From assembly GCA_965228475.1 (NCBI GenBank), contig OZ245817.1:2048001-2112000 (forward strand): a stretch of DNA of 64,000 nt, in the 5' to 3' direction. Below are positions 37,700 to 64,000 of this stretch, in pieces (the first letter of the stretch is position 1; each line of letters starts with the position of its first letter). The notes under the pieces were generated by a model, which made no database searches, was not told the DNA's origin, and worked only from the letters and a program-made list of their open reading frames with translations. The position numbers and the translations under genes were made by a program. Source of the stretch: Myxococcota bacterium. Its GTDB lineage: Bacteria > Myxococcota_A > UBA9160 > JAFDDA01.

Positions 37700-40078
<2,379 letters not shown>

Positions 40079-43035: not shown

Positions 43036-43046
43036 GGCCGCCCCCG

Positions 43047-43068
43047 TTTCCAGGCGGATGCCTGGAAA
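43047..43068. terminator. Stem-loop downstream of rnr (possible terminator or stability hairpin)
   Basis: TTTCCAGGC-GGAT-GCCTGGAAA, perfect 9-bp stem, no U-tract. Confidence 0.4.
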
Positions 43069-43078
43069 TCCCCCCGTT

Positions 43079-43094
43079 CGTGATCAACTTCACT
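43079..43094. promoter_or_regulatory. CRP-type binding site candidate upstream of the Crp-family gene
   Basis: CGTGA-TCAACT-TCACT, perfect GTGA-N6-TCAC core. Confidence 0.55.
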
Positions 43095-43203
43095 GGGCGT
43101 CTTCCGATACGAGGTGAAGTCACCCCGGTCCGGGCGATCCCGGACCGCATGGGTCCGTGCCACGACCGCACGGCTCCGCGGGGTGGCCGAACGGGAGGCC
43201 CCG

Positions 43204-43890
43204 ATGGCCGTTGAACTCGCATTCCTTCGGAAGGTGCCGCTCTTCTCCGAGCTCGAGGATTCGGAGCTCGCCGAGATCGCGGCGGCGTTCCGTGAGCGCT
43301 CCTACCCCAAGAACTCCGTGATCTTCCTCGAGGACGAGACGGGCGACTACATGTACGTCGTGCGCGACGGGCGCGTGAAGGTCGTCCGCCAGCTCCCGAG
43401 CGGGAAGGAGACGATCCTCGCCTTCCACGATGCCGGCGAGTTCTTCGGGGAGATGTCGCTCCTTGACGGGGGAACGACCCCGGCGAGCGTGATCGCCGTC
43501 GCGCCTACGACGATCCTGTCGCTCTCGCGGCGCGACTTCCAGAACCTCCTCTCGAACCCCATCGTGAACCAGGCCCTCCTGCGCATGCTCTGCCAGCGCT
43601 GCCGGGAAGCCTGGTCCCAGGTCGAGCTCCTGACCCTGAACCACGCCGAGGCCCGCATCCGGGCCCTCCTCCAGCGCCTGTGCACGAGCAAGGGGCGCGA
43701 GGAGGGGGATGGCGTCCACCTCGAGCAGCGATTGACCCACCGGGAGCTCGCGGACATGGCGGGGATCACCCGGGAGTCGGCCTCCCGGGCGGTCAGCCGC
43801 CTCCAGAAGCTCGGCCTGCTGCGCGTGGAAGAGGGGCTCCTGCACGTTCCCGAGCCCGAGGCGCTGCTCGACTTCGACCTCGACGGCTAG
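43204..43890 (+). CDS. Crp/Fnr family transcriptional regulator
   Basis: LRKVPLFSEL, cNMP-type beta-roll with FFGEMSL, C-terminal HTH LTHRELADMAGITRESASR; GGGAGG RBS. Confidence 0.93.
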   Translation: MAVELAFLRKVPLFSELEDSELAEIAAAFRERSYPKNSVIFLEDETGDYMYVVRDGRVKVVRQLPSGKETILAFHDAGEFFGEMSLLDGGTTPASVIAVAPTTILSLSRRDFQNLLSNPIVNQALLRMLCQRCREAWSQVELLTLNHAEARIRALLQRLCTSKGREEGDGVHLEQRLTHRELADMAGITRESASRAVSRLQKLGLLRVEEGLLHVPEPEALLDFDLDG

Positions 43891-44051
43891 CGGGGAGCCT
43901 GGAATCCGTGCACTCCGGGTTTTCCACCAGAAATCGCACGATTCCCCGGTCGAATTGCGATGGGAGCGTCACCGGGCGGTGTTTTCCGGCGACTCACTTC
44001 CACGCCATACTCCTGCCTTCCCACGAGGCCACCCCGGAGTAGCACGAGCTG

Positions 44052-47000
44052 ATGCCCGCGATCGAAGCCTCCCATGCCCTGTCGCCCATGCAGCAGGGCT
44101 TCTTGTTCCATCGCCTCTCGGGTCTCCCCGCCGGGGTCGACCTCGAGCAGATCCTCGTCCGCTGCGAGGAGCGCCTGGACCGGGCGGCCTTCGCCGAGGC
44201 CTTCGCCGCCGTGGTGGCGAGCCATCCGGTCCTGCGCACCCGCTTCCGCTGGGAGGACGTCGAGGATCCGGTCCAGGAGATCCTGGAGGAGGCCACGCTC
44301 GCGATCGACTGGCGCGACCTGGGCGCCGCCGCCGACGCGGATTCCGCGGTCGAGGCCTTCGTCGCCGAGGATCGCGCGCGCGGCTTCGACCTCGGCGAGG
44401 CGCCGCTCTCCCGGGTGACGGTGCTCGAACTCGCCGGCGATGCCTGCGTGGTCGTCTGGTCGTTCCCGCACATCGTGATGGACGGGCGCTCCTTCCCGCT
44501 CGTGCTCCGGGAGCTCTTCGCCCGCTACGACGCCGCGCGCGAAGGTGACGCCGCGCGCGAAGGCCGCACGGCCGAGATCGCCTTGCGCCCGCCCTACGCG
44601 GAATGGGTCGCCTGGGTGCTCGGCCGGGACAGCGCGGCCTCGGAACCCTTCTGGCGCGAACGCATGGGGGGCTTCCGCGAGCCGACGCCGCTGCCGGGCA
44701 AGCCCGCCGAGGCGGAAGCGCGCGGCGAGCGGGAAGTCCGGCTCTCGCGTGAAGACACGGACGCCCTGCGCCGCCACGCCGAGGCCCACGGCCTCTCGCT
44801 GAACAACTTCGTCCAGGGTGCCTGGGCGATCCTTCTCTCGCGCTACTCCGGCGAGGAGGACGTCGTGTTCGGCGCGACGCGTGCCGGCCGCGCCGGGACG
44901 CTTCCGGACGCGGACGAGCGCGTCGGTCTTTTCATCAACACGCTGCCCGTGCGCGTCGGTGTGGACGCCGGGCGCGAGGTGCTGCCCTGGCTGGCCGAGC
45001 TGCGCGAGCGCGAGCGCGCCGTCCGCCCCCACGAGCACACGCCGCTGGTCTCGCTCCAGGGCTGGTGCGACGTGCCGGCCGGGACGCCGCTGTTCGAGAG
45101 CCTGATCGTCTTCGACCACGCGCTGCTCGACAGCCAGGTTCGCGAGGGGACGGACGGTTTCGAGAAGCGCCGCTTCGAGCTGCGCGAGTGCACGAACTTC
45201 CCGCTCACGCTCTACGGCTACGCCGAGCGCGAGCTGCTCTTGAAGCTCGCCTACGACGAGCCGCGCTTCGACGCCGAGCGCGCCGATCGCATCCTCGGCC
45301 ACCTGGCGACCGTGCTCGAGGCGCTGGCCGCGGACCCGGAGCGTCGCGTCGGCGAGCTCTCCATGCTGACCGCGGCGGAGCGAACGCAGATCCTCGAGGG
45401 CTGGAACGCCACCGCGCGCGACTACCCGGGCGACCGCTGCCTGCACGAGCTGATCGAGGCCCAGGTGGACCGGACGCCCGACGCGCCGGCCGTGAGCTTC
45501 GAACACGAGACGCTTTCGTATGCGGAGCTCGATGCCCGGGCCAACCGGCTCGCCCATCGCCTGCGGGAGCTCGGCGCCGGGCCGGACGACCTCGTCGGAC
45601 TCTTCCTCGAGCGCTCCGTGGATCTGGTCGTCGGCGTGCTGGCGGTGCACAAGGCCGGCGCGGCCTACGTGCCCCTCGATCCGGAATATCCCCGCGACCG
45701 CGTCGCCTACATGGTCGAGGACGCGAGCGTCCGGATCGTCGTGACCCAGGCCGCGCTTTCCGGGGACGTCCCGGCGCGCGACGTCGAGATCGTCGCGATC
45801 GATGCCGAGGAGGCCGGTGCCCCCGCCGAGCGGCTCGAGAACCGCGCCACCTCCGCGAACCTCGCCTACGTGATCTACACCTCGGGCTCGACCGGGCTCC
45901 CGAAGGGCGTGATGGTCGAGCACCGGAACGTTGCGAACTTCTTCGCGGGGATGGACGAGCGCATCCCGCACGGCCAGGGGGAGGGCGACGTCTGGCTCTC
46001 GGTGACGAGCCTCTCCTTCGACATCTCGGTGCTCGAGCTGCTCTGGACCCTCGCGCGCGGCTTCCACGTCGTCGTGCAGGCGGACGAGGCGCGTGCCGCC
46101 CGTCGCGGCCCGGCGCCGGCCGCTGCCGCCACGGGGACGGGGCGTCCGCTCTCCTTCGGCCTGTTCTACTTCGCGGCGGACGAGGCCGAGCGCGCCGGCA
46201 ACAAGTACGAGCTCCTGCTCGAGGGTGCGAAGTACGCCGACGCCCACGGCTACTCGGCCGTCTGGACGCCCGAGCGCCACTTCCACGCCTTCGGCGGGCT
46301 CTACCCGAACCCCGCGGTGACCGGCGCCGCCGTGGCCGCGGCCACCGAGAACGTGCAGATCCGCGCGGGCTCGGTCGTGCTGCCGCTGCACCACCCGGCG
46401 CGCATTGCCGAGGAGTGGTCGATCGTCGACAACCTCTCGAACGGCCGGGTCGGCGTCTCCGTGGCGTCGGGCTGGCAGCCGAACGACTTCGTGCTCGCGC
46501 CGGAGAACTTCGCCACGGCGAAGACGGGCCTGTTCGACGGCATCGAGACCGTGAAGAAGCTCTGGCGAGGGGAGGGCGTGGTCTTCCCGGGCCCGAAGGG
46601 CGACGTCGAGACGAAGACCCTGCCGCGCCCGGTCCAGCCCGAGCTGCCCGTCTGGGTGACGAGCGCCGGCAGCCCCGAGACCTTCCGCGAGGCGGGCCGC
46701 ATCGGCGCGAACATCCTGACCCACCTGCTCGGGCAGACGCTCGAAGAGGTCGGCGAGCGCATCGCGATCTACCGCGAGGCGTGGAAGGAAGCGGGCCACC
46801 CGGGGCAGGGCGAGGTCAGCATGATGCTGCACACCTTCGTCGGCGACGACCTCGAGGCGGTGCGGGAGACCGTCCGCCGCCCGATGATGAACTACCTCGC
46901 GAGTTCGGTCGGGCTGATCAAGGGCTTCGCCCAGGCCTGGACGGCCTACAAGAAGAAGTCCGACGGCAGCACCGACGCCGACGTCGACCTGAACACCCTG

Positions 47001-48488
47001 TCCGAAGAGGACATGGAGGACCTCGTCGCCTACTCCTTCGAGCGCTACTTCGAGACCAGCGCGCTGTTCGGGCCGCCCGAGCACTGCCTCGCGCTCGTGC
47101 GCCAGCTCCAGGACATCGGCGTCGACGACATCGCGTGCCTGATCGACTTCGGCGTCGAGACCGAGACGGTGCTCGCGCATCTGCCCCGCCTGACCGAGCT
47201 CAAGGCGATGGCGACGGCGGCCCCGGCCGTGGCCGCCGAGGGCGGGGCTTCCGCCGCCGAGGACTACCGGTTGCCGCAGCAGATCGCGCGCCACGGCGTG
47301 ACGCACCTGCAGTGCACCCCGAGCATGGCGCGGATGATCACGCTCGACCCCGAGGCCCGCGAAGCCGTCGGCAAGCTCTCGGTCTTCATGGTCGGGGGCG
47401 AGGCCCTTCCCGCGAGCCTGGCGCGCGAGCTGTGCGAGATCAGCCCCGCGAAGATCCTGAACATGTACGGCCCGACCGAGACGACGATCTGGTCTTCGAC
47501 GGAGCACGTCACCGCGGATGCCGAGACGGTGACGATCGGGACGCCCATCGCGAACAACCAGCTCTACGTGCTCGACGCCGAGCGTCAGCCCGTGCCCGCG
47601 GGCGTGGCCGGCGAGCTCTACATCGGGGGCGACGGCGTCGTGCGCGGCTACCTCGACCGCCCGGATCTCACGGCCGAGCGCTTCGTCCCGGATCCGTTCC
47701 GCAGCGCCCTCCACGCGAGCGACGCGCCGGCGCGGCTCTACCGCACCGGGGACCTCGCACGCTGGCGGGAAGACGGGCGGATGGAGTTCATCGGGCGCGC
47801 CGATCACCAGGTGAAGGTGCGCGGCTACCGCGTCGAACTCGGCGAGATCGAGGCGCTCCTGAACCTGCACCCGGCGGTCCGCGAGGCGGTCGTCATCCCG
47901 CGCGAGGACGAGGAAGGCGACCAGCGGCTCGTGGCCTACCTGATCCCGCACGCGGGCGAGGCGCCGGCCAGCCAGGCCCTGCGCGAATCCCTGCGCGAGA
48001 AGCTGCCGGACTTCATGGTGCCCTCGCACTTCGTCTGCATGGAGGCGTTCCCGCAGACGCCGAACCGCAAGGTCGACCGCAAGGCGCTGCCGGACCCGGC
48101 GGAGCTCGCCGGCCACAGCCCGGCCGTCCACCGCAAGCCCGAGAACGAGATCGAGGAGGGCATTGCGCGGATCTGGCAGGAGGTGCTGCGCATCCCCCAG
48201 GTCGGGCGCGAGGACAACTTCTTCGATCTCGGCGGCCACTCGCTGCTGGCCTTGAAGACCCACCGCCGGATCGTGGCGGAGCTCGACGCCAGCGCGCTCA
48301 AGATCACGGACCTCTTCCGCTTCCCCACGGTCCGGGCGCTGGCCGAGCACCTCTCGGACGAGGGCGAAGGGCCCTCGCTGCAGCGCAGCCGTGACCGCGC
48401 CGGGGCCCGGCGCGAAGCCATGGCGGCCCGGCGCGGCCGCCCGCGCGCGCGCCGCAAGCCGCGCGGCTCGAGCGAGCCGAGCGAGTGA
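44052..48488 (+). CDS. Single-module NRPS: C - A (interrupted by luciferase-like monooxygenase) - T
   Basis: C: LSPMQQG, PHIVMDG, GLFINTLP. A: YTSGSTGLPKG, FDIS, NMYGPTE, LYRTGD, QVKVRGYRVELGEIE. LLM insert about 46150-47210: FGLFYF, WTPERHFH.FGG.YPNP. T: FFDLGGHSL. Confidence 0.95.
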   Translation: MPAIEASHALSPMQQGFLFHRLSGLPAGVDLEQILVRCEERLDRAAFAEAFAAVVASHPVLRTRFRWEDVEDPVQEILEEATLAIDWRDLGAAADADSAVEAFVAEDRARGFDLGEAPLSRVTVLELAGDACVVVWSFPHIVMDGRSFPLVLRELFARYDAAREGDAAREGRTAEIALRPPYAEWVAWVLGRDSAASEPFWRERMGGFREPTPLPGKPAEAEARGEREVRLSREDTDALRRHAEAHGLSLNNFVQGAWAILLSRYSGEEDVVFGATRAGRAGTLPDADERVGLFINTLPVRVGVDAGREVLPWLAELRERERAVRPHEHTPLVSLQGWCDVPAGTPLFESLIVFDHALLDSQVREGTDGFEKRRFELRECTNFPLTLYGYAERELLLKLAYDEPRFDAERADRILGHLATVLEALAADPERRVGELSMLTAAERTQILEGWNATARDYPGDRCLHELIEAQVDRTPDAPAVSFEHETLSYAELDARANRLAHRLRELGAGPDDLVGLFLERSVDLVVGVLAVHKAGAAYVPLDPEYPRDRVAYMVEDASVRIVVTQAALSGDVPARDVEIVAIDAEEAGAPAERLENRATSANLAYVIYTSGSTGLPKGVMVEHRNVANFFAGMDERIPHGQGEGDVWLSVTSLSFDISVLELLWTLARGFHVVVQADEARAARRGPAPAAAATGTGRPLSFGLFYFAADEAERAGNKYELLLEGAKYADAHGYSAVWTPERHFHAFGGLYPNPAVTGAAVAAATENVQIRAGSVVLPLHHPARIAEEWSIVDNLSNGRVGVSVASGWQPNDFVLAPENFATAKTGLFDGIETVKKLWRGEGVVFPGPKGDVETKTLPRPVQPELPVWVTSAGSPETFREAGRIGANILTHLLGQTLEEVGERIAIYREAWKEAGHPGQGEVSMMLHTFVGDDLEAVRETVRRPMMNYLASSVGLIKGFAQAWTAYKKKSDGSTDADVDLNTLSEEDMEDLVAYSFERYFETSALFGPPEHCLALVRQLQDIGVDDIACLIDFGVETETVLAHLPRLTELKAMATAAPAVAAEGGASAAEDYRLPQQIARHGVTHLQCTPSMARMITLDPEAREAVGKLSVFMVGGEALPASLARELCEISPAKILNMYGPTETTIWSSTEHVTADAETVTIGTPIANNQLYVLDAERQPVPAGVAGELYIGGDGVVRGYLDRPDLTAERFVPDPFRSALHASDAPARLYRTGDLARWREDGRMEFIGRADHQVKVRGYRVELGEIEALLNLHPAVREAVVIPREDEEGDQRLVAYLIPHAGEAPASQALRESLREKLPDFMVPSHFVCMEAFPQTPNRKVDRKALPDPAELAGHSPAVHRKPENEIEEGIARIWQEVLRIPQVGREDNFFDLGGHSLLALKTHRRIVAELDASALKITDLFRFPTVRALAEHLSDEGEGPSLQRSRDRAGARREAMAARRGRPRARRKPRGSSEPSE

Positions 48489-51400
48489 GCGACGAGAAGA
48501 AGCGAGAGCAGGAGGAGGCGGGTCTCGAGGAAGGCGCGGGCAACGAGATCGCCGTCGTCGGCATGGCGCTGCGCGTGCCCGGGGCGGACACGCCCGAGGC
48601 CTACTGGGAGAACCTGCGCTCGGGCACCGAGTCGATCCGTCACTGGACCGTCGAGGAGCTCGAGGAGGCGGGCGTCGCCCCGGAGCTCCTGCGCGACCCG
48701 CGCTACGTGCGCGCCTCGGGCGTGCTCGACGACATCAGCGGCTTCGATGCGGGCTTCTTCGGCGTCAGCGCGAAGGACGCGGGCATCATGGACCCGCAGC
48801 ACCGGCTCTTCCTCGAGTGCGCCTGGGAGGCGCTCGAGCGGACCGGGCACACCGCCACCGGCTTCCCGGGCGCCGTCGGCGTCTTCGGCGGCTGCGGGAT
48901 GGGCACGTACTTCATCCACAACATCCTGAGCAATCCGGACCTCGTGAACTCGGTCGGCTGGTTCCTCCTCCGCCACACGAACAACGACAAGGACTTCCTC
49001 TCGACCTTCGTATCGTACAAGATGAACCTGACCGGGCCGAGCGTGAACGTGCAGACGGCGTGCTCGACCTCGCTCGTCGCCATCCACGCGGCCTGCCAGA
49101 GCCTGCTCTCGCGCGAGTGCGACATGGCGCTCGCGGGCGGCAGCACGCTCAACGTTCCCCACGAGGTCGGGTACCTCTACCAGGAGGGCGAGATCCTCTC
49201 GCCGGACGGTCACTGTCGCGCCTTCGACGCGCAGTCGGCCGGGACGGTCTTCGGCAACGGCTCGGGCGTGGTGGCGCTTCGCCGGCTCGAGGACGCCATC
49301 GAGGACGGCGACCCGATCCGCGCGATCATCCGCGGCTCCGCGATCAACAACGACGGCTCGCAGAAGGCGGGCTACCTCGCGCCGAGCGTGGAGGGCCAGG
49401 CCGCGGCCATCGCCGAGGCCATCTCCGTGGCAGGCGTCTCGGCCGAGGAGATCGGCTACGTCGAGGCCCACGGCACCGGGACGTCCGTGGGGGATCCGAT
49501 CGAGGTCGCCGCGCTGACTCAGGCCTTCCGCGAGACGAGCGAAGGCAAGGGCTACTGCGGACTCGGCTCGGTGAAGCCGAACATCGGGCACCTCGATACC
49601 GCCGCCGGCGTGGCGAGCTTCATCAAGGTCGTGCTGGCACTCGAACACGGGGAGATCCCGCCCTCGCCCCACTACGAGCGGCCGAACCCGGCGATCGACT
49701 TCGATACGAGCCCGTTCTACGTCAACGCCGAGCATCGCGTCTGGGAGAGCGAGGCGCCGCGGATCGCCGGGGTGAGCTCCCTCGGCGTCGGCGGCACGAA
49801 CGCCCACGTGATCCTCGAGGAGCCTCCGCCGCCGGAGCCGAGCGGCGCGGGCCGCGCGGTCCAGCTGCTTCCCCTCTCGGCGCGCACGCCGGCCGCGCTC
49901 GCGGAGGCGAGCCAGCGGCTCGCCGAGCATCTGCGCGCGAACCCGGACGTGCCGCTCGCGGACGCCGCCTGGACGCTCCAGGTCGGCCGGAAGCCCCTCG
50001 ACCATCGCAAGGGCGTCGTGTGCCGCACGGTCGAGGAGGCCATCGCGCGCCTCGAGACGCCGGACAAGCGCACCGTGGCGAGCGGGCAGGTCGCCGGCCC
50101 GAGCCCCTCGACGGCGTTCCTCCTGCCGGGAGGCGGCGCCCAGTACCCGCGCATGGGACTCGGGCTCTACGAGGATGAGCCGATCGTGCGCGAGCACGTC
50201 GACCGCGGCCTCGAGATCCTCCGCACGCGGTTCGATCTCGACCTGCGCGACGTCTGGTTCCCGGAGGACGCCGGCCTCGAAGCCGCGGCCGAGACCTTCC
50301 AGCGCCCGGCGCTGCAGCTCCCGGCGATCTTCATCCTCGAGTACGCGCTGGCGAAGCTCTGGATGTCCTTCGGCGTGAAGCCCCAGGCCCTGATCGGGCA
50401 CAGCATGGGGGAGAACACGGCGGCCTGCCTCGCCGGCGTCATGTCCTTCGAAGACGCCCTCGGCCTGGTGACCCTGCGCGGCCGGCTCTTCGAGACCACC
50501 GAGCCGGGCGGCATGATGAGCCTCTCGCTCCCGGCGGACCGGGCGGCCGAGTACGTCGCCGAGGACACGGTGTTGGCCTCGGTGAACGGGCCGAGCCTGT
50601 GCGTGATCTCGGGTTCGGACGCGGCGATCGATCGGCTCGAGAAGCGGCTCGCGGAAGACGAAGTCGACCATCAGCGCGTGCGGATCTCCGTCGCGGCGCA
50701 CTCGCCCCTGCTCGATCCGATCCTGGAAGAGTTCGGCGCGTACCTGCGGAGCATCGAGCTCCACCCGCCGGAGATCCCGATCGTCTCGAACCGCACGGGG
50801 ACGTGGCTCTCGGACGACCAGGCGACGAACCCGGACTACTGGGTCCAGCACCTGCGCCACACCGTGCACTTCGCCGACGGCGTCGGCACGCTGCTCGAGA
50901 CGCCCGGCCGGGTCCTGCTCGAAGTCGGGCCCGGCAAGACCCTCGGCTCGCTCGCGCGCCAGCACGCATCGGCCAGCCCCGGGCAACCCGTCGTGTCCTC
51001 CCTGCGACATCCCGAGGAAGCCATCGCCGACGCGGACTTCTTCCACCTGGCGCTCGGCCGGGTCTGGATCGGCGGGGCTTCGGTCGACTGGGAGCAGTAC
51101 CACCGCGGCGAAGATCGGCAGCGTCTGACGCTCCCGACCTATCCCTTCGAGCGGCAGCGCTACTGGATCGAACCCGGCACGGCGCGCTACGAAGCGCCGG
51201 CGCCCGTCCTCCCGATCGAGAAGCTCACGGACCCGGACGACTGGTTTCGCCGGCCTGCCTGGCACACGGCGCCGCCGCCCGGGAAGTCCGCCGCCGAAGA
51301 AGAGCCGCGCACGTGGCTGTTCTTCCTCGACGCCGCCGGGATCGGGAGCGAGCTCGTCGCGCGCCTGCGCGGGGCGGGGCACCGGGTCGTCACGGTGAAG

Positions 51401-54400
51401 GAAGGCGACGCCTTCTACCGCTTCGGCGACGACGACTTCGCCCTGGCTCCGGAAGCCGGCCGCGACGGCTACGACCAGCTGGTGCAGGCGCTGAACGAAA
51501 GCGAAGCGCTGCCCGACCGCATCGTCCACCTCTGGCTCGTCACCGCGGACGAGAGCGCGCGTGCGGGATCGAGCTTCTTCCACCGCAACCAGGAGCGCGG
51601 CTTCTACAGCCTGCTCTTCCTGATGCAGGCCCTCGCCGGCGAAGACTCGTCCGGCGCCCGCCGCATCGATCTGCTCTCGACGGGGCTGCACTCCGTCTCC
51701 GGGGAGGCTCTGCCGCACCCCGACAAAGCCACCGTTTTCGGGCCTTTGCGCGTGATCCCTCACGAGTTCCCCGAGGTCCGCTGCCGGAACGTCGACGTCG
51801 AGGTCCCCGGCGCGGAGCGCGCGTCCGGCGAGGGCTCGCCGATGGCGGCGCTGCTCGATCGGCTGCTCGGCGAACTGGGCGAAGGCGCGACCGCGGACGT
51901 CGTGGCCTACCGCGGCGACGTGCGCTTCGAGCAGACCCTCGAGAAGCTCGCGCCCGAGACGCTCGAAGCGGGCGGGACGCCGCTGCGGGACGGCGGGGCG
52001 TACCTCGTGACCGGCGGCCTCGGCGGCATCGGCTTCGCGGTGGCCGAGCAGCTCGCCGAGCGCGCGAAGGCACGGCTGGTGCTGCTCTCGCGCCGCGGCT
52101 TCCCGGAGCGAGAGGCCTGGGACGCCTGGCTCGAGCGCCACGGCGAACGCGACGGCACGAGCGAACGCATCCGCCGCATCCGGCGGCTCGAGGCGGCGGG
52201 CGCCGAGGTCTGGGTCGCCACGGGCGACGTCGCGAACATCGAACGCATGCGCGAAGTCGTGCGGGAGGCCGAGGCGCGCTTCGGGCCGCTTCATGGTGTC
52301 TTCCACGCGGCCGGCACGATCGAGGACGGCGTCATCCCGATGAAGAGCCCGGAGGCGGCCGAGCGCGTCTTCACGCCGAAGGTTCACGGCACCCTCGTGT
52401 TCGCCGAGCTCTTCGCGGACAGCGCGCTCGACTTCCTCGTGCTCTTCTCGTCGACGAGCACGGTCCTCGGCCCGCCCGGCCAGGTCGACTACACCGGCGC
52501 GAACGCCTTCCTCGACGCCTTCGCGGCCAGCCGCCGCGGGGCGCCCGGCCCGCGCACGGTGACCGTCGGCTGGGGCGTCTGGAACGAGGTCGGCATGGCC
52601 CGTCAGATCCAGCGCGGCCTGCGCGGAGATGACGTCGACGCCGGCGCCGAACACCTGCGCGTGGCGCATCCGCTGCTCGACGAGCGCATCGATCTCGGCG
52701 GCGGCCGGACGCTCTACGCGAGCGAGCTCTCGCCCCAGGACCGCTGGGTGCTGGACGAGCACCGCCTGAAGGATGGCCGCGCCGTCTGGCCGGGCACGGG
52801 CTACCTCGAACTCGCCCGGGCCGCCGCGTCCGACCTGCTCGAGGGCGCCGCCTTCGGCCTCGAGGGCGTGCAGTTCCTGGCACCGCTCGAGGTTCCGGAC
52901 GACGGCGAGCGCCGCATCGAGCTCGAACTCGAACGGGACGGCGACGTGCTGCGCTTCGAGATCCGCAGCCGCGACCTCGACGCCGAGGAGGGCGCTTCCG
53001 CGGAGCCCGTCCTCCACGCCCAGGGCCGTGTCCGTCCGGGAGCCCCGGAGCCCGCGGCGTCGCTCGACGTGCCGACGCTGGCGGCGGCCTGCACGGGAGA
53101 TCTCCGCGAGGGGACGGACCTCGCCAGCGACCAGGACGTGCTGCTGGCCTTCGGGCCCCGCTGGCGCTGCCTCGAGCGCACGGGCTTCGGCGAGGGCAGG
53201 GCGCTCGCCCGGCTCGCCCTCTCGAGCGAGTTCAGCCGCGACCTCGACGACCACCATCTCCACCCGGCGCTGCTCGACCTCGCCACCGGCTTCGCCCTGC
53301 GGCTCGTCCCCGGCTACGAGCCCGGCGAGCAGCTCTACGTGCCGCTCTCCTACGACCGCGTCGCGATCCACGCCCCGCTCGAGCGGGAGCTGGTGAGCCA
53401 CGTGCGGGCGCGCCGGAGCAACCAGGCCGGCGGCGAGACCGCGGCCTTCGACGTGACCCTGGCGGATCTCGGCGGGCGGGTGCTCGTCGAGGTCACCGGG
53501 TTCACGATGCGGCGCATCGCCGGGCCGCGTGCCCTCGAGGCGGCGCCGCCGAGCGCCGGGCCGAGCGGGACCTCCGCCGCCGAGCGCGTCTTCCTCGAGT
53601 CCTTCGAGGCCGGCATCCGCGTCGACGAAGGCATGGCCGCGCTCGAGCGCATCCTCGGCCACGAGACCCCGGCCCAGGTGCTCGTGAGCTCGATCGATCT
53701 CGACCTCCTGCGCAAGCGCCACGCCGAGGTCGGCGCCGAGGAGCAGGCCGGCGCGGGCGTGAAGTTCGCGCGGCCCTCCCTCGCGAGCGAGTACGTCGAG
53801 CCGCGCGACGAGATCGAAGAGGCCCTGGTCGCGCTCTGGGAGGAACTCCTCGGGGTCGATCCGATCGGCGTGGAGGACGACTTCTTCGAGCTCGGCGGCC
53901 ACTCGCTCATCGCCGTGCGCCTGTTCGCCGCGATCAAGAAGAAGTACGGCGTCGAGTTCCCGCTCTCGGTGCTCTTCGACGCGCCGACCGTCGCCGCCTG
54001 TGCAGAGCTCCTCCGCGAGGAGGTCGGCGAGGCATCCGAGGGCGAGGCGCCGAAGCGCCGGCGCCGGGCCTACGACTTCCTGGTGCCGATGAACGACGTC
54101 AAGGAGGCGACGAAGGCGCCGTTCTTCCTGGTCTCCGGGATGTTCGGGAACGTGCTGAACCTGCGGCACCTGGCGGCGCACCTCGGCGAGGACCAGCCGG
54201 TCTTCGCGATCCAGGCGCGCGGCCTCTACGGCGACGAAGAGCCCCACACCCGCTTCGAGGACATGGCGCGCGACTACCTGCGCGAGATCCGCACCGTGCA
54301 GCCCGAGGGGCCGTACTTCCTCGGCGGCTTCTCCGGCGGCGGACTGACGGCCTTCGAGATGGCCCACCAGCTCCGCGCCGAGGGCGAGGAGGTCGCGACG

Positions 54401-54916
54401 GTGATCCTGCTCGACACGCCGGCCGGTCCGATCCGCCGGCCGAACGGCCTCGAACGCGCACGCATCCAGCTCCAGCGCCTGCGCCGCCTCGGCCCGGGCT
54501 ATCTCGTGACCTGGGCGCGCAACCGCGTGCGCTGGGAGCTCGAGCGCCTGACGCGGCGGGCGCCCGTGCCGGAGATCCAGGAGGTCACGCCGGCCGAGTT
54601 CCGCTCGGGGCAGATCGAGGGCGCCTTCCGCGAAGCGCTCGACCATTACACCCTCCGCCGGTACGAGGGCGGTGTGGCGCTCTTCCGGCCGGCGCTCGAC
54701 ACGTCCCACCCGCTCGGGCGCGGCCGGGTCGCGAACGAGCGGCGCGAGCTCGTCGACCCCCTGAACTTCTGGGGCCCCTACGCCGAATCGGTGCACCTCG
54801 AGGAGGTGCCGGGCGATCACGACGGCATGGTGCTCGAGCCCTACGTGCGGGTGCTCGGCGCGAAGATGCGCGCCGTGATCGAAGCGGCCCAGGCTGCCGC
54901 CGGGAATGTCCGCTAA
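48485..54916 (+). CDS. Type I polyketide synthase: KS-AT-KR-DH-carrier-TE
   Basis: KS: DPQHR, QTACSTS, HGTGT, NIGH. AT: GHSMG. KR: GGLGGIG, HAAGTIEDG, DYTGAN. DH: HRLKDGRAVWP, HPALLD. Carrier: GGHSL. TE: GFSGG, GDH. Confidence 0.95.
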   Translation: MSDEKKREQEEAGLEEGAGNEIAVVGMALRVPGADTPEAYWENLRSGTESIRHWTVEELEEAGVAPELLRDPRYVRASGVLDDISGFDAGFFGVSAKDAGIMDPQHRLFLECAWEALERTGHTATGFPGAVGVFGGCGMGTYFIHNILSNPDLVNSVGWFLLRHTNNDKDFLSTFVSYKMNLTGPSVNVQTACSTSLVAIHAACQSLLSRECDMALAGGSTLNVPHEVGYLYQEGEILSPDGHCRAFDAQSAGTVFGNGSGVVALRRLEDAIEDGDPIRAIIRGSAINNDGSQKAGYLAPSVEGQAAAIAEAISVAGVSAEEIGYVEAHGTGTSVGDPIEVAALTQAFRETSEGKGYCGLGSVKPNIGHLDTAAGVASFIKVVLALEHGEIPPSPHYERPNPAIDFDTSPFYVNAEHRVWESEAPRIAGVSSLGVGGTNAHVILEEPPPPEPSGAGRAVQLLPLSARTPAALAEASQRLAEHLRANPDVPLADAAWTLQVGRKPLDHRKGVVCRTVEEAIARLETPDKRTVASGQVAGPSPSTAFLLPGGGAQYPRMGLGLYEDEPIVREHVDRGLEILRTRFDLDLRDVWFPEDAGLEAAAETFQRPALQLPAIFILEYALAKLWMSFGVKPQALIGHSMGENTAACLAGVMSFEDALGLVTLRGRLFETTEPGGMMSLSLPADRAAEYVAEDTVLASVNGPSLCVISGSDAAIDRLEKRLAEDEVDHQRVRISVAAHSPLLDPILEEFGAYLRSIELHPPEIPIVSNRTGTWLSDDQATNPDYWVQHLRHTVHFADGVGTLLETPGRVLLEVGPGKTLGSLARQHASASPGQPVVSSLRHPEEAIADADFFHLALGRVWIGGASVDWEQYHRGEDRQRLTLPTYPFERQRYWIEPGTARYEAPAPVLPIEKLTDPDDWFRRPAWHTAPPPGKSAAEEEPRTWLFFLDAAGIGSELVARLRGAGHRVVTVKEGDAFYRFGDDDFALAPEAGRDGYDQLVQALNESEALPDRIVHLWLVTADESARAGSSFFHRNQERGFYSLLFLMQALAGEDSSGARRIDLLSTGLHSVSGEALPHPDKATVFGPLRVIPHEFPEVRCRNVDVEVPGAERASGEGSPMAALLDRLLGELGEGATADVVAYRGDVRFEQTLEKLAPETLEAGGTPLRDGGAYLVTGGLGGIGFAVAEQLAERAKARLVLLSRRGFPEREAWDAWLERHGERDGTSERIRRIRRLEAAGAEVWVATGDVANIERMREVVREAEARFGPLHGVFHAAGTIEDGVIPMKSPEAAERVFTPKVHGTLVFAELFADSALDFLVLFSSTSTVLGPPGQVDYTGANAFLDAFAASRRGAPGPRTVTVGWGVWNEVGMARQIQRGLRGDDVDAGAEHLRVAHPLLDERIDLGGGRTLYASELSPQDRWVLDEHRLKDGRAVWPGTGYLELARAAASDLLEGAAFGLEGVQFLAPLEVPDDGERRIELELERDGDVLRFEIRSRDLDAEEGASAEPVLHAQGRVRPGAPEPAASLDVPTLAAACTGDLREGTDLASDQDVLLAFGPRWRCLERTGFGEGRALARLALSSEFSRDLDDHHLHPALLDLATGFALRLVPGYEPGEQLYVPLSYDRVAIHAPLERELVSHVRARRSNQAGGETAAFDVTLADLGGRVLVEVTGFTMRRIAGPRALEAAPPSAGPSGTSAAERVFLESFEAGIRVDEGMAALERILGHETPAQVLVSSIDLDLLRKRHAEVGAEEQAGAGVKFARPSLASEYVEPRDEIEEALVALWEELLGVDPIGVEDDFFELGGHSLIAVRLFAAIKKKYGVEFPLSVLFDAPTVAACAELLREEVGEASEGEAPKRRRRAYDFLVPMNDVKEATKAPFFLVSGMFGNVLNLRHLAAHLGEDQPVFAIQARGLYGDEEPHTRFEDMARDYLREIRTVQPEGPYFLGGFSGGGLTAFEMAHQLRAEGEEVATVILLDTPAGPIRRPNGLERARIQLQRLRRLGPGYLVTWARNRVRWELERLTRRAPVPEIQEVTPAEFRSGQIEGAFREALDHYTLRRYEGGVALFRPALDTSHPLGRGRVANERRELVDPLNFWGPYAESVHLEEVPGDHDGMVLEPYVRVLGAKMRAVIEAAQAAAGNVR

Positions 54917-55616
54917 CCCTCCGGTTCGCATGCCGGACCTCGTCCATACCCCTTCGATGCCGGGCCTCGACGTCTCCGGGCTCTTCGACGGAGCGCCCGG
55001 CGTCCGCGTCGCGGCGGCGCCGACGTCGACCCCGGTCGAGACGCTCCTGGCCGAGGAGCAGGCGCTCGTCGCGCGGGCCGTCGAGGTGCGGCGCCGGGAG
55101 TTCGCGACCGGACGCCGCCTCGCCCGGACCCTGCTCGCGGAGGCCGGCTGGCCCGAGGCTCCGCTCCTGCGCGATGCGGACCGCGTGCCGCTCTGGCCCG
55201 AGGGCGCGCTCGGCTGCATCTCCCACACGCGCGAATGGTGTGTCGTCGCGGTCGCTTCGTGCGACGACGTCACGGCCCTCGGCGTCGACGTCGAGCCGGA
55301 CACGCCGCTCGAGCCGGCGCTCTGGCCGCGCATCGCGACGCACGCCGAGCGCGAATGGCTGTCGCGTCAGCCCGAGGCCGAGCGCGGCCGTCTCGCCCAC
55401 GGGATCTTCGTCGTGAAGGAGTGCGTGTACAAGGCGGCGTTCCCGTCGCGGCGGGAGCGCTGGGGGTTCCAGGACGTCGAGACCGCGCTCGAGCCCATCG
55501 CGGGCCGCTTCAGGGCCGAGACCCCGGGCTTCGGTGCGGGCGAACGCCGCGTCGTCGAGGGCCGTCTGCTCCGCCGGGACGGGCAGTGGCTCGCGGGCCT
55601 GGCCGAGGCGCGCTGA
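54906..55616 (+). CDS. 4'-phosphopantetheinyl transferase (EntD/Sfp-type)
   Basis: RRREFATGR, P.WP.G..GCISH, LGVDVE, FVVKECVYKA; overlaps PKS stop. Confidence 0.93.
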   Translation: MSANPPVRMPDLVHTPSMPGLDVSGLFDGAPGVRVAAAPTSTPVETLLAEEQALVARAVEVRRREFATGRRLARTLLAEAGWPEAPLLRDADRVPLWPEGALGCISHTREWCVVAVASCDDVTALGVDVEPDTPLEPALWPRIATHAEREWLSRQPEAERGRLAHGIFVVKECVYKAAFPSRRERWGFQDVETALEPIAGRFRAETPGFGAGERRVVEGRLLRRDGQWLAGLAEAR

Positions 55617-56735
55617 GTGGGACGCACCGCCGCGAAGTTCGGACTGCTCGCGCTGCTGATGCTCCTGCCCCTCGAGCTCACCTCCTGCGTTGGCGGCAAC
55701 CTGCTGGCCGCGCGCGGGGTCGTCTATCGCGCGCCGGGGAGCGAGGGCTACGCCCGCTACCTCGAGCGGCGGGATCCGCTGCTCGGCTGGCCGAGCCCGG
55801 CCTCGCTCGGCGGCGAACAGTACGACTCGCGCGGTGCGCGCCGCGTGGGCCCGGGCGCGGCGGACCCGGCCGAGCCGCCCTGCATGGCCGTCTTCGGGGA
55901 CTCCTTCACCTTCGGCGACGAGGTCGAGGCCGAGGAGGCCTACGCCGAAGTGCTCGGGGCGGCGCTCGGCTGCCGCGTCGCGAACTACGGCGTCGGCGGG
56001 TACGGCAGCGACCAGGCGTTGCTCCGCCATCGCCACCGCTTCGAGGAGCCGGCGCAGGTCGTGCTGCTCGCCCACTACACCGAGAACGTGATCCGCAACG
56101 TGAACCGCTACCGGGGCTTCCTGACCGGGGGCGGCTTCGGCTGGAAGCCGCGCTTCGTCTCCGCCGGAGACGGCCCGCTCACCCCGCTCGATCTGCCGAC
56201 CCCGGCGGAAGAGGAGCTCCCGCGCTTCGGCTACGGGGACCCGCTCGAGCACGAGTACTTCACGCCGGGCGGGCCCGCGGGAATCGTCGCGCTGCGTTTC
56301 CCGTACACGCTCTCGATGCTGCGGGTGATCGGGCAGTACCGCGTCCGCGCGGCCCTTCGCGGCGAGCTCAGCTACGCGCCGTTCTACCGGCCCGAGCATC
56401 CTTCCGGCGCCATGACCCTGACGGCGGACATCCTCGAGACCTTCGTGCGCGACGCCCGCGCCCGGGGACAGCGGCCCCTCGTGATGGTGATCCCCGACGA
56501 GCGGGACCTCGTCGCGGTGCGCGGCGGCGAGCCGCTGCCCTACGAGCCCCTGCTCGAGGAGCTCGCGCGGCGCGGGATCGAGACGCCGCGCCTGGCCGAC
56601 GCGCTCCTCGCGGGTCTCGGCGAGGAAACACCCTGCGCGCTCTACCTGAGTTGCGGCGGCGCCCACATGAACCCCCGCGGCCACCGCGCGATCGCGGACG
56701 CGCTCGAGAGCATCGTCCGGCCTCTCCTTCGCTAA
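55617..56735 (+). CDS. Membrane-anchored SGNH/GDSL-family protein
   Basis: N-terminal hydrophobic anchor (LTSC lipobox-like), FGDSFTFG block I, NYGVGGYG block II, C-terminal HMNPRGH block V. Confidence 0.8.
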   Translation: MGRTAAKFGLLALLMLLPLELTSCVGGNLLAARGVVYRAPGSEGYARYLERRDPLLGWPSPASLGGEQYDSRGARRVGPGAADPAEPPCMAVFGDSFTFGDEVEAEEAYAEVLGAALGCRVANYGVGGYGSDQALLRHRHRFEEPAQVVLLAHYTENVIRNVNRYRGFLTGGGFGWKPRFVSAGDGPLTPLDLPTPAEEELPRFGYGDPLEHEYFTPGGPAGIVALRFPYTLSMLRVIGQYRVRAALRGELSYAPFYRPEHPSGAMTLTADILETFVRDARARGQRPLVMVIPDERDLVAVRGGEPLPYEPLLEELARRGIETPRLADALLAGLGEETPCALYLSCGGAHMNPRGHRAIADALESIVRPLLR

Positions 56736-57811
56736 ACGCGGGGCGGCGCGATGCGTTCGTCGTAGTGGGAGACGATCGTCTGCCAGAGGCGCACGACCTC
56801 GCGGGCGGCGTGGGGCGTCACGGCGGCCTCCCGTCCGGCGCGGGCGGCCGCGAAGAAGTCGGCGAGTTCGCGGTAGTGCGACGTCGCCTCGACGGGCTCC
56901 GGTCCGGGCCGGGAGAGACGGAGCCTGTGCAGGGCGCGCCGCCCGGCGTGGGCGAGCAGCCCGGGCATCTCCTGGCGCACCTGGGTGGGCGTGGCGGTCA
57001 GTTCCGTGATCCGACCGAAGGGATACACGATGCGGTGGCCCTGGGTCCCGGCCAGCACGAGGCTCGTCGGGATCTCGGTGTTGAAGCTGTACCAGACGTG
57101 GGCCGTCTGCTGACCGTCGCGGCTCGCGAAGTCGACGCGCAGTTCGTCGATGCCGAAGTCGACGTCCTCGAAGCCGGCCGGTCCGATCTGGTGGCCGAGC
57201 TTGCGGGCGTCGACGTGGAGAACCTCGAGGTCCGGGATCACCTCGACGAGCAGGCAGAGCGCGTGGGGCAGCGTCTCGCCCATGCGTCCGCCGGCGGTCC
57301 GGTAGTACCACGGGTCGGGGACGAAGAGCTGGTGCCGCAGGGCCGCCGTGTACTGCACGGAGCACAGCGAGCCGATCTCACCCCGGGCGAGCAGGCCGCG
57401 CAGCGCGTCGATGCTCGGGTTGAAGAGCTCGTTGTGGATGACCGAGAGCGTGCGGCCGGTTTCGCGGGCGCGCTCGACCACGCGATCGGCCTCGGCGAGG
57501 TCGTAGCTGAAGGGCTTTTCGACGAGGACGTGCAGGCCGGCGTCGAGGGCCGCGAGGGCGAGGGCCGCGTGGGATTCGGGCGGCGTCAGGACGAGGACGG
57601 CGTCGAGGCCCGCCTCGGCGAAGAGGGCCTTGGCGTCCCGGTAGCGCGAGGCGATGCCGAAGGCGTCGCCGACCTCGGCCATGCGCGCTTCGTCCGTGTC
57701 GCAGAGCGCGACGGCTTCGACGCCGGGCAGCGCGCGGAGGCACGGCAGGTGGAGTTCGCGGGCGGCCAGCCCGCAGCCCACGAGGCCGACACGAAGCGCG
57801 TCGCTAGCCAC
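56732..57811 (-). CDS. Gfo/Idh/MocA family oxidoreductase
   Basis: VGLVGCG, TPPESH, HVLVEKP. Confidence 0.88.
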   Translation of the reverse strand: MASDALRVGLVGCGLAARELHLPCLRALPGVEAVALCDTDEARMAEVGDAFGIASRYRDAKALFAEAGLDAVLVLTPPESHAALALAALDAGLHVLVEKPFSYDLAEADRVVERARETGRTLSVIHNELFNPSIDALRGLLARGEIGSLCSVQYTAALRHQLFVPDPWYYRTAGGRMGETLPHALCLLVEVIPDLEVLHVDARKLGHQIGPAGFEDVDFGIDELRVDFASRDGQQTAHVWYSFNTEIPTSLVLAGTQGHRIVYPFGRITELTATPTQVRQEMPGLLAHAGRRALHRLRLSRPGPEPVEATSHYRELADFFAAARAGREAAVTPHAAREVVRLWQTIVSHYDERIAPPRV

Positions 57812-58727
57812 GGCCCGGGTCCTCGGGCTTGCGGGCGACGAAGGTGATCGACCCCGCCATCTCGGTCTCGCGTGTGTGCCGGTCGGGGCCCGGCTTGCGC
57901 GCGACCCGCCGGGCCACGCCCGAGGCGGCGCGGAAGGCGGCGTCGAGCGTCTTCAGCCCGAGCCGCGCGGCCCAGGCGAAGGGCTTGCCCTCCGGTCCCG
58001 GCGGAAACGCCATCTCCGGAATCGCATCCGTCCAGCGCCAGTCCGGCCACAGGCGCTCGACTTCGAAACCGGCCATGCGCAGGGTCCAGAGCAGTCCGGC
58101 GTGGCTCATGTGATGGAAACTCGCGCGGTCGTGGAACTTGTAGACGAAGGCGGCGGTGCCGAGGAAGAGCCCGCCGGGCCGGAGCACGCGGAAGCCTTCG
58201 CGCGCAGCGAGCAGCGGCGAGGCCAGGTGCTCGTAGACGGCGAGCGAGAGGTAGAGGTCGAAGGAGCCGTCGGTGATCGGGAGGTTGTGCGCGTCCACCT
58301 GGACGTGGGGCCCGATGCCGCGGTGGTCGACGTCGGCTCCGACGTAGTGGAAGCCGCGCGGTGCGAACCAGCTCTCGCACTGACGCTCGCCGCAGCCGAC
58401 CTCGAGCACCCAGCGGCCGTTGCCCTCCTCGCCGGGAATCGTCGCGAGGTGCCGGTCGAGGTGATAGGGGAGGTCGCGAGCCCGGTCGGCCGGAAGCGGC
58501 TCCGGGGGGTCGAAGCGCAGGCCGTCGAGCTCCTCCCAGGGTTCCCACCAGGGCAGGTCGAGGGAGAGCCGCTCGGGCGCGACGCGCAGGTCCGGGACGT
58601 CGCCGGTCACCGGGTAGATCTGCGAGCCGCTGGCGGTCCGCACCGAGTTCCCCGCCCGCTCGAGCGGCTGCCCGGTCCGCGGGCAGCGGAGGCGCGGCAG
58701 GATCTCTTCCAGGGTCAGTCCGGGCAT
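57804..58727 (-). CDS. SAM-dependent methyltransferase with N-terminal Trm112-like domain
   Basis: LRCPRTGQPL...YPVTGDVPDL, then VLEVGCG, DAHNLP..DGSFD, AVYEH, RVLRPGG. Confidence 0.85.
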   Translation of the reverse strand: MPGLTLEEILPRLRCPRTGQPLERAGNSVRTASGSQIYPVTGDVPDLRVAPERLSLDLPWWEPWEELDGLRFDPPEPLPADRARDLPYHLDRHLATIPGEEGNGRWVLEVGCGERQCESWFAPRGFHYVGADVDHRGIGPHVQVDAHNLPITDGSFDLYLSLAVYEHLASPLLAAREGFRVLRPGGLFLGTAAFVYKFHDRASFHHMSHAGLLWTLRMAGFEVERLWPDWRWTDAIPEMAFPPGPEGKPFAWAARLGLKTLDAAFRAASGVARRVARKPGPDRHTRETEMAGSITFVARKPEDPGRG

Positions 58728-58927
58728 GCTCGCTGGGCGGTCTCCTGGGTTCCGGCGCCGGGCGTGCACGCCCGGGGGCCGCGATGGTGCCCGAAGCTCC
58801 AGCAGGGCGCATCGGTGGATGGGGCTCGCAGGCTGAGGTTTCGCGAGCCGGGCCGCTTCCGGCCGGTGATTTCCTCAGGGTTTCTCCGATTCGAGCCGAC
58901 CCGGAAGGCTAGGATTCGAACGCCGCG

Positions 58928-60654: not shown

Positions 60655-60675
60655 ACGGCGCCCGCTCGGCGGCGC

Positions 60676-61578: not shown

Positions 61579-61579
61579 G

Positions 61580-62488: not shown

Positions 62489-62674
62489 GGCGGCAAACTC
62501 CTGCGACGAGTGTCCTGCGTCTTGCGACGAAGGGTGTCCTGCGGGGGGCGGCCACCGGGTGAGTGCCCGTCCGGGCCCCGAAGGGGTCACGAAATCGAGC
62601 CGCCTCGCGTCGAGGGCGCGGAAGGGCGGCTAAGACGCTAATTTTGCTACCGAAATTATCATCGAGGCGCGAGG

Positions 62675-63988: not shown

Positions 63989-64000
63989 ATCGCCGGGGGG

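Follow-up and report, generated by a model that had tools for sequence, protein, structure and literature searches.

The assembly-line operon

The window analysed here, the whole stretch of 64,000 nucleotides at G000:C1:2,048,001-2,112,000 (G000 being the host genome itself), carries a run of four genes for a nonribosomal peptide synthetase (NRPS), a polyketide synthase (PKS), a 4'-phosphopantetheinyl transferase (PPTase) and a protein of SGNH fold. Our comparisons indicate that the conserved partner of this PKS is a GT2 glycosyltransferase (GT) at the edge of the window, not the SGNH protein. The four genes lie as follows.

44052-48488, + strand: NRPS, from open reading frame (ORF) and domain search
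48485-54916, + strand: PKS, from ORF and domain search
54906-55616, + strand: PPTase of EntD/Npt type, from Pfam/NCBIfam domain matches, with NRPS- or PKS-adjacent homologues in many loci
55617-56735, + strand: membrane-anchored SGNH-fold protein, from a GDSL_2 match, a structure model and a fold search

The four-gene run is real and intact. The NRPS end and the PKS start have GTGA in common, the PPTase ATG at 54906 produces an 11-nt overlap with the PKS stop, and the PPTase TGA (55614-55616) abuts the GTG of the SGNH gene (55617), so that ORF coordinates and domain calls agree with the overlapping and abutting junctions described in the initial annotation. The two genes 3' of the SGNH gene run towards it on the minus strand, and the operon therefore ends there. 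Contigs of two public DNA runs, possibly the source of this DNA, span 43000-62900 with 0 differences, and a sigma-70 promoter/terminator scan of 43000-60000 gave 0 promoters and 4 terminators against 4.3 by chance.

The NRPS consists of a condensation (C) domain (residues 8-448), an AMP-binding adenylation (A) domain split by a monooxygenase (702-1051) and a peptidyl carrier protein (PCP, 1371-1434); it has no thioesterase (TE) itself, and the PKS comes next. The monooxygenase is placed between the A4 and A5 motifs, belongs to the luciferase-like MupA/Atu3671 type (TIGR04020, 515.8 bits, cut-off 244) and has PuwE 6KET as its nearest solved structure (E 4e-116). In the C domain His140, Asp144, Gly145 and Arg146 are invariant across 13 aligned rows, and the nearest structures are the C domains of McyB, PvdL, TycB and SrfA-C, which we take to be of DCL type. 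The A-domain pocket residues D-I-L-Q-M-G-M-I-W-K, nearly fixed in the NRPS family, resemble what we take to be the glycine specificity code; moreover, the C-terminal A half has LgrA module 2, presumably glycine-specific, as its best PDB match and is similar also to DhbF, whose specificity we likewise assume. The A domain is thus predicted to be of glycine type, a call which rests on the assumed code and the similarity to LgrA module 2 and DhbF. A genome-wide PP-binding search found only 4 matches plus one weak carrier.

The PKS is a single type I module in the order ketosynthase (KS), acyltransferase (AT), ketoreductase (KR), dehydratase (DH), acyl carrier protein (ACP) and TE, in which the catalytic KS Cys, AT Ser, KR Tyr, DH His and Asp, and TE Ser are all present; the TE is a Ser thioesterase of the subtype we call TE-A. 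The KR is B-type-like and retains the LDD-motif Asp (kept in 53 of 64 rows), which together with the intact DH points to an E-enoyl product. As one amino-acid step and one ketide step are seen in the domain calls, the very small glycine-plus-ketide product first proposed is in line with them.

The extender is a more delicate question. The AT motif of the window PKS is VAAH, neither HAFH nor YASH; HAFH is assigned to malonyl and TAGH to ethylmalonyl in the accessible part of PMC7327777. A 416-aa neighbour in relatives, taken for an aldehyde-reducing alcohol dehydrogenase, was wrongly labelled and is a crotonyl-CoA carboxylase/reductase (CCR; TIGR01751, 578 bits), an enzyme for which background is available in part of PMC6164871. 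The AT motif is xAGH in 7 of the 9 CCR-linked loci, yet a strict rule equating the AGH motif with the presence of CCR fails, being broken by the loci L053 (VAAH) and L074 (AASH), both with CCR, and by L016, with RAGH and no CCR above the cut-off. In three planctomycete loci methylmalonyl-CoA mutase- or epimerase-like genes are found 3' of the PKS, and in the own genome methylmalonyl-CoA mutase genes are present while CCR was not found. From these genes, the VAAH motif and the pattern in relatives we guess, with moderate confidence, that the extender used by the window PKS gives a methyl branch.

The linked glycosyltransferase and its polysaccharide

The GT2 named above begins outside the window and ends inside it.

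63943-64000 in the window (3' end), on to window-equivalent 64,992, - strand: PKS-linked GT2 of 349 aa, from its GT-A fold and its co-occurrence with the PKS

A fold search with this protein returned only generic GT-A folds at 12-21% identity, a PDB sequence search gave 0 matches, and a rhamnosyltransferase model was matched at E 6e-9, far below its cut-off. A one-genome-per-species scan found at least 563 relatives, and the best 80 loci of these at least 563 were analysed with a home-made caller for genes and labels, in which 249 singletons of at least 150 aa were scanned at E 1e-9 and the 53 representatives of clusters at 1e-7, singletons below that length being left out. These 80 loci span Pseudomonadota, Myxococcota, Planctomycetota, Chloroflexota, Gemmatimonadota, Acidobacteriota and others. 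A strict glycan marker, namely GT2, GT4, GT26, flippase, priming GT, Wzy or Wza, occurs within 10 kb in the fetched flanks of 33 of the 80 loci, and of 32 of the 68 whose flanks reach 3 kb or more; the count does not include a Wzy-like cluster identified afterwards, which would add L053. As a control, GT2 or GT4 was found in 6.3-10.8% of tiles of 10.5-20 kb cut from the own genome, a figure for one genome and these two families only.

The glycan link is, as judged from these loci, not family-wide, and the split follows the release domain of the PKS. Across phyla, the genomes behind 19 of 20 tested TE-A PKSs and 12 of 12 PKSs of the subtype TE-B, which has a Cys nucleophile, contain the linked GT2, against only 1 of 27 for PKSs of other subtypes. 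In the KS-AT tree (all trees are FastTree trees) the window PKS belongs to a starred clade whose 20 rows are without exception GT2-positive and come from Planctomycetota, Myxococcota, Alphaproteobacteria and Betaproteobacteria. Moreover, where NRPS and PKS are apart, the PKS is elsewhere in the genome in 10 of 10 cases and adjoins the linked GT2 in 4 of them, and the plasmid loci of Shinella, Ruegeria, Paracoccus and Aminobacter (4 of 4 opened) place the pair inside flippase/GT/Wzy-type loci. Among the closest relatives whose NRPS starts with a C domain, the gene order is NRPS-PKS-PPTase-CCR-GT26 in G036 and G048, each pieced together across two contigs, and NRPS-PPTase-GTs, with no PKS, in L110. 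These comparisons tie the PKS clade of the window to one Wzx/Wzy polysaccharide and its GT2. The initial annotation had expected homologous pairs to keep polysaccharide neighbours and had named their usual absence as evidence to the contrary: family-wide this contrary evidence holds in part (33 of 80 loci with a strict marker in the fetched flanks, 47 without), while for the PKS clade of the window the expected co-occurrence stands, and with one polysaccharide type.

The association was also followed within a single family, for which 81 genomes of the alphaproteobacterial family of G109 (the Amylibacter record L012) were sampled, the PKS being called from matches to the ACP-TE region of the window at E below 1e-100. 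The PKS is present in 21 of the 81 genomes, the linked GT2 in 22 and a Wzy homologue in the same 22, so that all 21 PKS genomes have both GT2 and Wzy, a single genome combines GT2 and Wzy with no PKS, and in 59 all three are missing; two more PKS matches, both weak, belong to other synthetases. The PKS match lies at most 93 bp from the GT2 match in 21 of 21 genomes, and at most 30 kb from Wzy in 16 of 21, on other contigs in 4 and 421 kb away in 1. In the order of the window's host, the NRPS is found in at least 8 of 61 genomes and the linked GT2 in 16 of 61, including 6 of those 8. Five GT2-bearing genomes free of the NRPS have no PKS either (0 of 5), and most of them have Wzy, chain-length or priming genes beside the GT2. 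Since the GT2 stands in exopolysaccharide (EPS) loci that have no PKS, it should be an enzyme of the repeat unit and not a tailoring enzyme of a small molecule. It seems, then, that the PKS needs this EPS and that the EPS does without the PKS, an asymmetry which is the prediction for an optional decoration and which co-inheritance of a cassette could produce as well. A further EPS locus, L199-L200 (G008:C30), has the linked GT2, PPTase and crp, no NRPS or PKS being found there, and is possibly a case of loss of the assembly line.

From this evidence we consider it rather probable that the NRPS-PKS acyl unit decorates the repeat unit of the downstream Wzx/Wzy EPS, with the TE as the probable transferring domain. 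The alternative that deserves most attention is a free small molecule (an acid, a lactone/butenolide-like compound or a simple glycoside) acting as signal or toxin, the genes of which are merely co-located or co-regulated with EPS genes for a surface lifestyle. A TE is the conventional release domain, about half of the homologous loci family-wide are without glycan neighbours, exporters adjoin some loci, and the Roseobacter cluster discussed below was published as a secondary-metabolite cluster, as far as the accessible parts of PMC5014874 and PMC4337385 go. A free metabolite would fit poorly, however, with a PKS that is always accompanied by the specific GT2 and Wzy in the alphaproteobacterial family sampled (21 of 21), with a GT2 link that is kept in four phyla or classes despite rearranged gene orders, and with a GT2 whose presence in PKS-free EPS loci indicates that it is not there to glycosylate a metabolite. 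Moreover, no small-molecule exporter, resistance gene or receptor was recognised from window position 40,167 to the end of the EPS locus, 26 kb past the window, which agrees with what had been noted for the surroundings at the outset. We therefore hold a free metabolite to be unlikely.

Several observations nevertheless weigh against decoration of the EPS. In the fetched flanks 47 of the 80 loci show no strict glycan marker (mostly other PKS/TE subtypes), the genomes of 36 of these 47 have no linked GT2, and the Chloroflexota and Ramlibacter versions have no glycan link. On the PKS tree as few as 4 changes suffice to explain the GT2 label, so the independent events are few; similarly, co-inheritance of one cassette would yield the same 21 of 21 pattern in the sampled family, where kin are not independent. 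Exporters are adjacent in some loci, for example an FtsX-type permease after the PKS (L025/L028), TolC (Aminobacter) and AcrB (L020). In L110, which has the closest NRPS relative (73%), no PKS lies between NRPS and PPTase; the same EPS also exists where the PKS is missing, and the GT2 of the window is 9 kb from the PKS and closest (55%) to the GT2 of G041, which is PKS-free. The AT/CCR pattern has the exceptions given above. The TE is only weakly like ordinary hydrolytic or cyclising thioesterases and has no sugar-transfer signature; its longest-range PDB match is the Pks13 thioesterase (residues 58-277, E 5e-9), others scoring higher over shorter stretches. Finally, the case for transfer to a glycan is built entirely on guilt by association, and in the papers searched no EPS structure bearing such an acyl group was found.

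Some further variants of the assembly line were observed in the course of the survey. In L110:736-13065 the 73% identity holds over the NRPS core and rnr-crp-NRPS-PPTase is kept, with no PKS or SGNH gene there and EPS genes directly after. L017, L030-L032, L034, L035, L044, L045, L049, L050, L068 and L079 form a sister PKS clade in which Cys replaces the TE Ser, and in 6 of these 12 loci a DegT aminotransferase directly follows the linked GT2, for which N-acylation of a nucleotide amino sugar would fit. TE-less PKSs are followed by two hydrolases that resemble the exosortase-associated hydrolases 1 and 2, below the curated cut-off, and some of these are in glycan loci. At L036:11253-18837 a TE-less PKS nested in the TE-B clade precedes hydrolase 1/2-like genes in a genome that has no linked GT2, an apparent single coupled switch of release route and partner. 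In Ignavibacteria the NRPS is duplicated in tandem (L080:2-7982), and in L080 as well as at L075:14489-16511 a radical SAM gene and a hexapeptide-repeat/carrier fusion lie between NRPS and PKS. The metagenome contigs L121, L122, L126, L128, L129, L132, L137, L140, L141, L144, L146 and L153 carry short NRPSs that start with a C domain of the same subfamily and have no monooxygenase; by BLAST-transferred labels these stand among GT, epimerase, deacetylase or priming-GT genes, often directly after an Sfp-type PPTase, which suggests a wider class of glycan-locus mini assembly lines.

Neighbouring loci, the SGNH protein and the starter domain

Between the SGNH gene and the linked GT2 the window holds seven genes of the EPS locus, and a regulatory gene precedes the NRPS. 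Their labels by domain search agree with those first given to the genes after SGNH.

43204-43890, + strand: CRP/FNR-family regulator (crp), from Pfam cNMP_binding and HTH_Crp_2
56732-57811, - strand: Gfo/Idh/MocA oxidoreductase (Pfam), with a homologue in the Shinella locus
57804-58727, - strand: S-adenosylmethionine (SAM) methyltransferase (Pfam), with 58-59% homologues in the G036 and G038 loci
58928-59773, + strand: GT26 (WecB/TagA/CpsF) glycosyltransferase, with 62-67% homologues in G036, G048 and L039
59833-60654, + strand: polysaccharide deacetylase (Pfam), with 49-53% homologues in G048 and L039
60676-61578, - strand: GT2 glycosyltransferase of a subfamily other than the PKS-linked GT2 (domain search)
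61580-62488, - strand: 2-oxoglutarate (2OG)-Fe(II) oxygenase, with homologues in the Ruegeria conchae, L017 and G051 loci
62675-63988, + strand: GT4 glycosyltransferase, EpsE-like (domain search)

The EPS genes run about 26 kb past the right end of the window, so that the NRPS heads a locus of about 45 kb. Past the window are found a stand-alone A domain with a small carrier and an AurF-like oxygenase, a flippase-like (Wzx) gene, a 376-aa protein with no family match (GNAT-like by eye), two AsnB-like genes, another GT2, a PKD protein and a second SGNH protein, as well as Wzy-like, chain-length, kinase and ATPase genes, a priming GT, an EpsC-like (serine-acetyltransferase-like) acetyltransferase, EpsI and an exosortase. 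The priming GT (TIGR03025, 382.6, cut-off 295.6), the exosortase (TIGR02602, 166.9, cut-off 105.6) and EpsI (TIGR02914, 97, cut-off 42.8) pass their curated cut-offs, whereas Wzx, Wzy, co-polymerase and kinase were matched below theirs; the flippase is homologous to genes annotated as flippase in the plasmid records. The regulator crp has homologues at 49-54% within the EPS loci of G036, G048 and G008, three genomes of the own order, and one at 84% before the NRPS in L110. Because these homologues sit inside the EPS loci of relatives, crp is probably part of the EPS locus and not a spacer, and probably regulates it.

The upstream 37 kb, which the initial annotation counted as the relevant glycan locus, did not hold up as the cognate one. 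It has a Wzm/Wzt ABC pair, a DAHP_synth_1-family (KdsA-like) gene, and DegT and AsnB genes, and matches the EPS loci of relatives only through generic families at 31-40% identity; with its own exporter and such matches only, it is treated as a separate locus. In its full extent (window 2-37681) it comprises the Wzm/Wzt genes (with a Wzt_C domain), two AsnB, two DegT, several methyltransferases, a weak match to a sulfotransferase, a WbmS-like deacetylase, a 2OG oxygenase and a protein with FG-GAP repeats. The own genome has two genes for Lon-like proteases at a distance of about 55 kb, one at window 37700-40078 and the other at G000:C1:2,028,802-2,031,243, the second recognised by eye only.

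The SGNH protein, which the initial annotation considered as a transferase beside the TE, has a GDSL_2 match of 38 bits over residues 92-149 only. Its model (predicted local distance difference test, pLDDT, 94.9) matches SGNH/GDSL hydrolases in a fold search; Ser96, Gly125 and His350 are invariant, and in the consensus Gly precedes the His, the usual Asp of DxxH being missing. An acyltransferase role in moving the unit from the assembly line onto the sugar would agree with the gene abutting the PPTase in one operon, with the fold and the invariant Ser and His, and with an unrelated SGNH-like protein (motif by eye, with no Pfam or NCBIfam match) which follows the PPTase in Ruegeria conchae and lies near the NRPS in 5 other loci. 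A close homologue, however, is found in only 2 of 61 genomes of the own order, the own genome and the PKS-free G041, and in none of the 7 other NRPS-bearing genomes, for which reason a conserved transferase was rejected. Moreover, given its N-terminal hydrophobic helix (2-32), the SGNH domain looks periplasmic in the model and would be beyond the reach of a cytoplasmic ACP; no MBOAT/AT3 or other membrane acyltransferase partner was found in the EPS locus, the only MBOAT-like match of the own genome being at G000 2,469 kb, about 360 kb away, and the Asp of DxxH is absent. Transfer by the SGNH protein is consequently very improbable in our estimation, and we regard the protein as most likely a periplasmic EPS esterase or acyltransferase with an accessory role, not as a conserved partner of the assembly line. 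The G048 locus does contain an MBOAT-like gene, judged by eye.

Another alternative starts from the C domain at the head of the NRPS, by which a fatty or aminoacyl group might be added to yield a lipid-like or linker unit that tethers the EPS to the membrane or links it to proteins of PEP-CTERM type processed by the exosortase, rather than decorating every repeat. The intact catalytic residues of this domain and its nearest structures agree with such a role, as do the exosortase, EpsI, two AsnB-like amide ligases and stand-alone A domain/carrier/AurF-like oxygenase of the locus and the TE-less relatives with hydrolase 1/2-like proteins (both below the curated cut-off). When 89 NRPSs were classified by their start, though, 66 began with a formyltransferase, which is unable to supply a lipid tail, against 13 with a C domain like that of the window and 10 truncated or other; and on the A-monooxygenase tree the formyltransferase/C start shows 6 switches, at least 5 of them forced by starred branches, which suggests a small or dispensable N-acyl group. 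The A/carrier/AurF cassette, moreover, accompanies formyltransferase-type NRPSs too (L039, G038) and has no close match in G036, whose NRPS is of C type, so that as a donor for the C domain it is unsupported. We judge a linker quite unlikely. The cassette itself (G000:C1:2,113,001-2,118,476, equal to L082:1104-6576, - strand) encodes an AurF-like diiron oxygenase, an 80-aa carrier and a stand-alone DltA-like A domain, is followed by the flippase and the 376-aa protein, and is kept at 47-70% in G038, G048 and L039 alongside NRPSs of both start types; it is probably an independent oxidised-aminoacyl decoration.

Proposed pathway and comparison with known systems

Returning to decoration of the EPS repeat unit, we propose the following course. 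The PPTase would prime both carriers, the A domain would load glycine, and the starter C domain would N-acylate it, where most relatives would use the formyltransferase instead. The embedded flavin monooxygenase may then hydroxylate the alpha-carbon of glycine, as proposed for MtaG, and the PKS would add one probably branched extender (methylmalonyl here, ethylmalonyl where CCR is encoded) with subsequent reduction and dehydration, giving a 4-acylamino-4-hydroxy-2-alkylbut-2-enoyl unit, or 4-oxo-2-alkylbut-2-enoyl after loss of the amide. In the cytoplasm the TE would place this unit on a nucleotide sugar or on the lipid-linked repeat unit, the acceptor being the sugar on which the linked GT2 acts, and Wzx and Wzy would export and polymerise the decorated unit. 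Of the original idea that the unit goes onto a sugar or glycolipid through the TE and/or the SGNH protein, the transfer to a sugar is kept, as read from genomic context, and the SGNH route is dropped. As a speculation that we hold to be doubtful, the NRPS-PKS, spread over at least four phyla or classes, might build a masked electrophile for a biofilm polysaccharide, in which the interchangeable formyl or acyl group protects alpha-hydroxyglycine and its breakdown unmasks the 4-oxo-2-alkylbut-2-enoyl group on the EPS, cross-linking amino sugars freed by the deacetylase or exosortase-processed surface proteins as a self-curing glue. If decoration is true, the role of multidomain NRPS-PKS systems would extend from diffusible natural products to the tailoring of cell-surface polymers, where the starter (formyl or acyl) and the extender (methyl or ethyl) would vary in a predictable way.

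Parts of such a pathway have known counterparts. DltABCD D-alanylates teichoic acid and AlmEFG glycylates lipid A, and the shared idea is an A domain and a carrier that prepare an amino-acid-derived group for a surface polymer; there the A domain and carrier stand alone, a membrane acyltransferase acts and the amino acid is unmodified, while in the window a multidomain NRPS-PKS would oxidise and extend it. The thioesterase of Pks13 transfers mycolate precursors to trehalose and is thus a PKS TE acting as sugar acyltransferase, but its similarity to the window TE is weak, which makes it a precedent and not evidence. The SGNH polysaccharide O-acyltransferases AlgJ, AlgX and PatB have an Asp-x-x-His motif and an adjacent MBOAT/AT3 partner; the SGNH protein of the window has the fold, Ser and His but neither this motif nor a partner in the locus. 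Compared with exosortase/PEP-CTERM EPS loci and the EpsA/EpsC/EpsD/EpsE/EpsZ set of Myxococcus, the own locus has the priming GT, GT26, GT2, GT4 and serine-acetyltransferase-like genes together with chain-length, kinase, ATPase, EpsI and exosortase genes, and no Wza-type export gene was recognised in it; the Myxococcus Eps equivalog models are matched below their cut-offs and include no NRPS or PKS. MtaG and MelG of myxothiazol and melithiazol biosynthesis have the architecture C-A-MOX-A-T-TE (MOX, monooxygenase; T, carrier), with alpha-hydroxylation of glycine proposed in the accessible part of PMC11411415. By that account the window shares with them the C domain, the monooxygenase-split glycine A domain and the PCP, whereas MtaG stands at the end of a long line and sheds the glycine carbons by means of a TE of its own, and the window module starts a line, is TE-free and feeds the PKS. 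As its PCP would feed a KS and not a TE, the glycine carbons should be kept.

The closest known system is the Roseobacter-lineage NRPS/PKS/glycosyltransferase/PPTase cluster, reportedly treated by Martens et al. (2007) and listed as a cryptic secondary-metabolite cluster since that year. In the searchable literature, which leaves out most subscription journals and Martens et al. 2007, we found no paper with a product, mutant phenotype or EPS role of the NRPS/PKS cluster. A relative of this kind had been named in the initial annotation, and such a cluster of four genes, its product unidentified, is indeed described for 28 of 57 genomes in the accessible parts of PMC4337385 and PMC5014874, where it is treated as a secondary-metabolite cluster and left unconnected to the surrounding EPS locus. 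For P. inhibens, the accessible part of PMC4062626, the only paper matched by a locus-tag search, gives PKS and NRPS tags that we read as c05350 and c05370 (two prefixes look swapped), and that of PMC10984933 gives c05360 as a GT of the chromosomal Wzx/Wzy module, next to the Wzy c05380, and reports no sugar-modification genes detected around the module. The PKS/NRPS tags thus flank c05360, a link made through locus-tag order and the Ruegeria conchae homologue, not gene sequence.

The window has the same four gene types as the Roseobacter cluster, with its NRPS at 46-53% and its PKS at 45-49% to the copies of Ruegeria conchae and Paracoccus, the same TE subtype, a place in the same starred KS-AT clade and a linked GT2 at about 40% to those of Ruegeria and Paracoccus. 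It differs in that its NRPS starts with a C domain where the Roseobacter copies examined have the formyltransferase, in its order NRPS-PKS-PPTase with the GT2 9 kb away and an extra SGNH gene instead of PKS-GT2-NRPS-PPTase, and in a host which by gene affinities is outside Alphaproteobacteria. In view of the C-domain start and the GT2 9 kb downstream we class it, on sequence grounds, as a condensation-starter variant of the Roseobacter orphan cluster and not a plain member. If the product is a covalent EPS tag, searches of solvent extracts would miss it, and EPS chemistry on a mutant would be the fitting approach; the window locus contributes the C-starter form to the Roseobacter system and makes clear which of the neighbouring genes is the relevant one.

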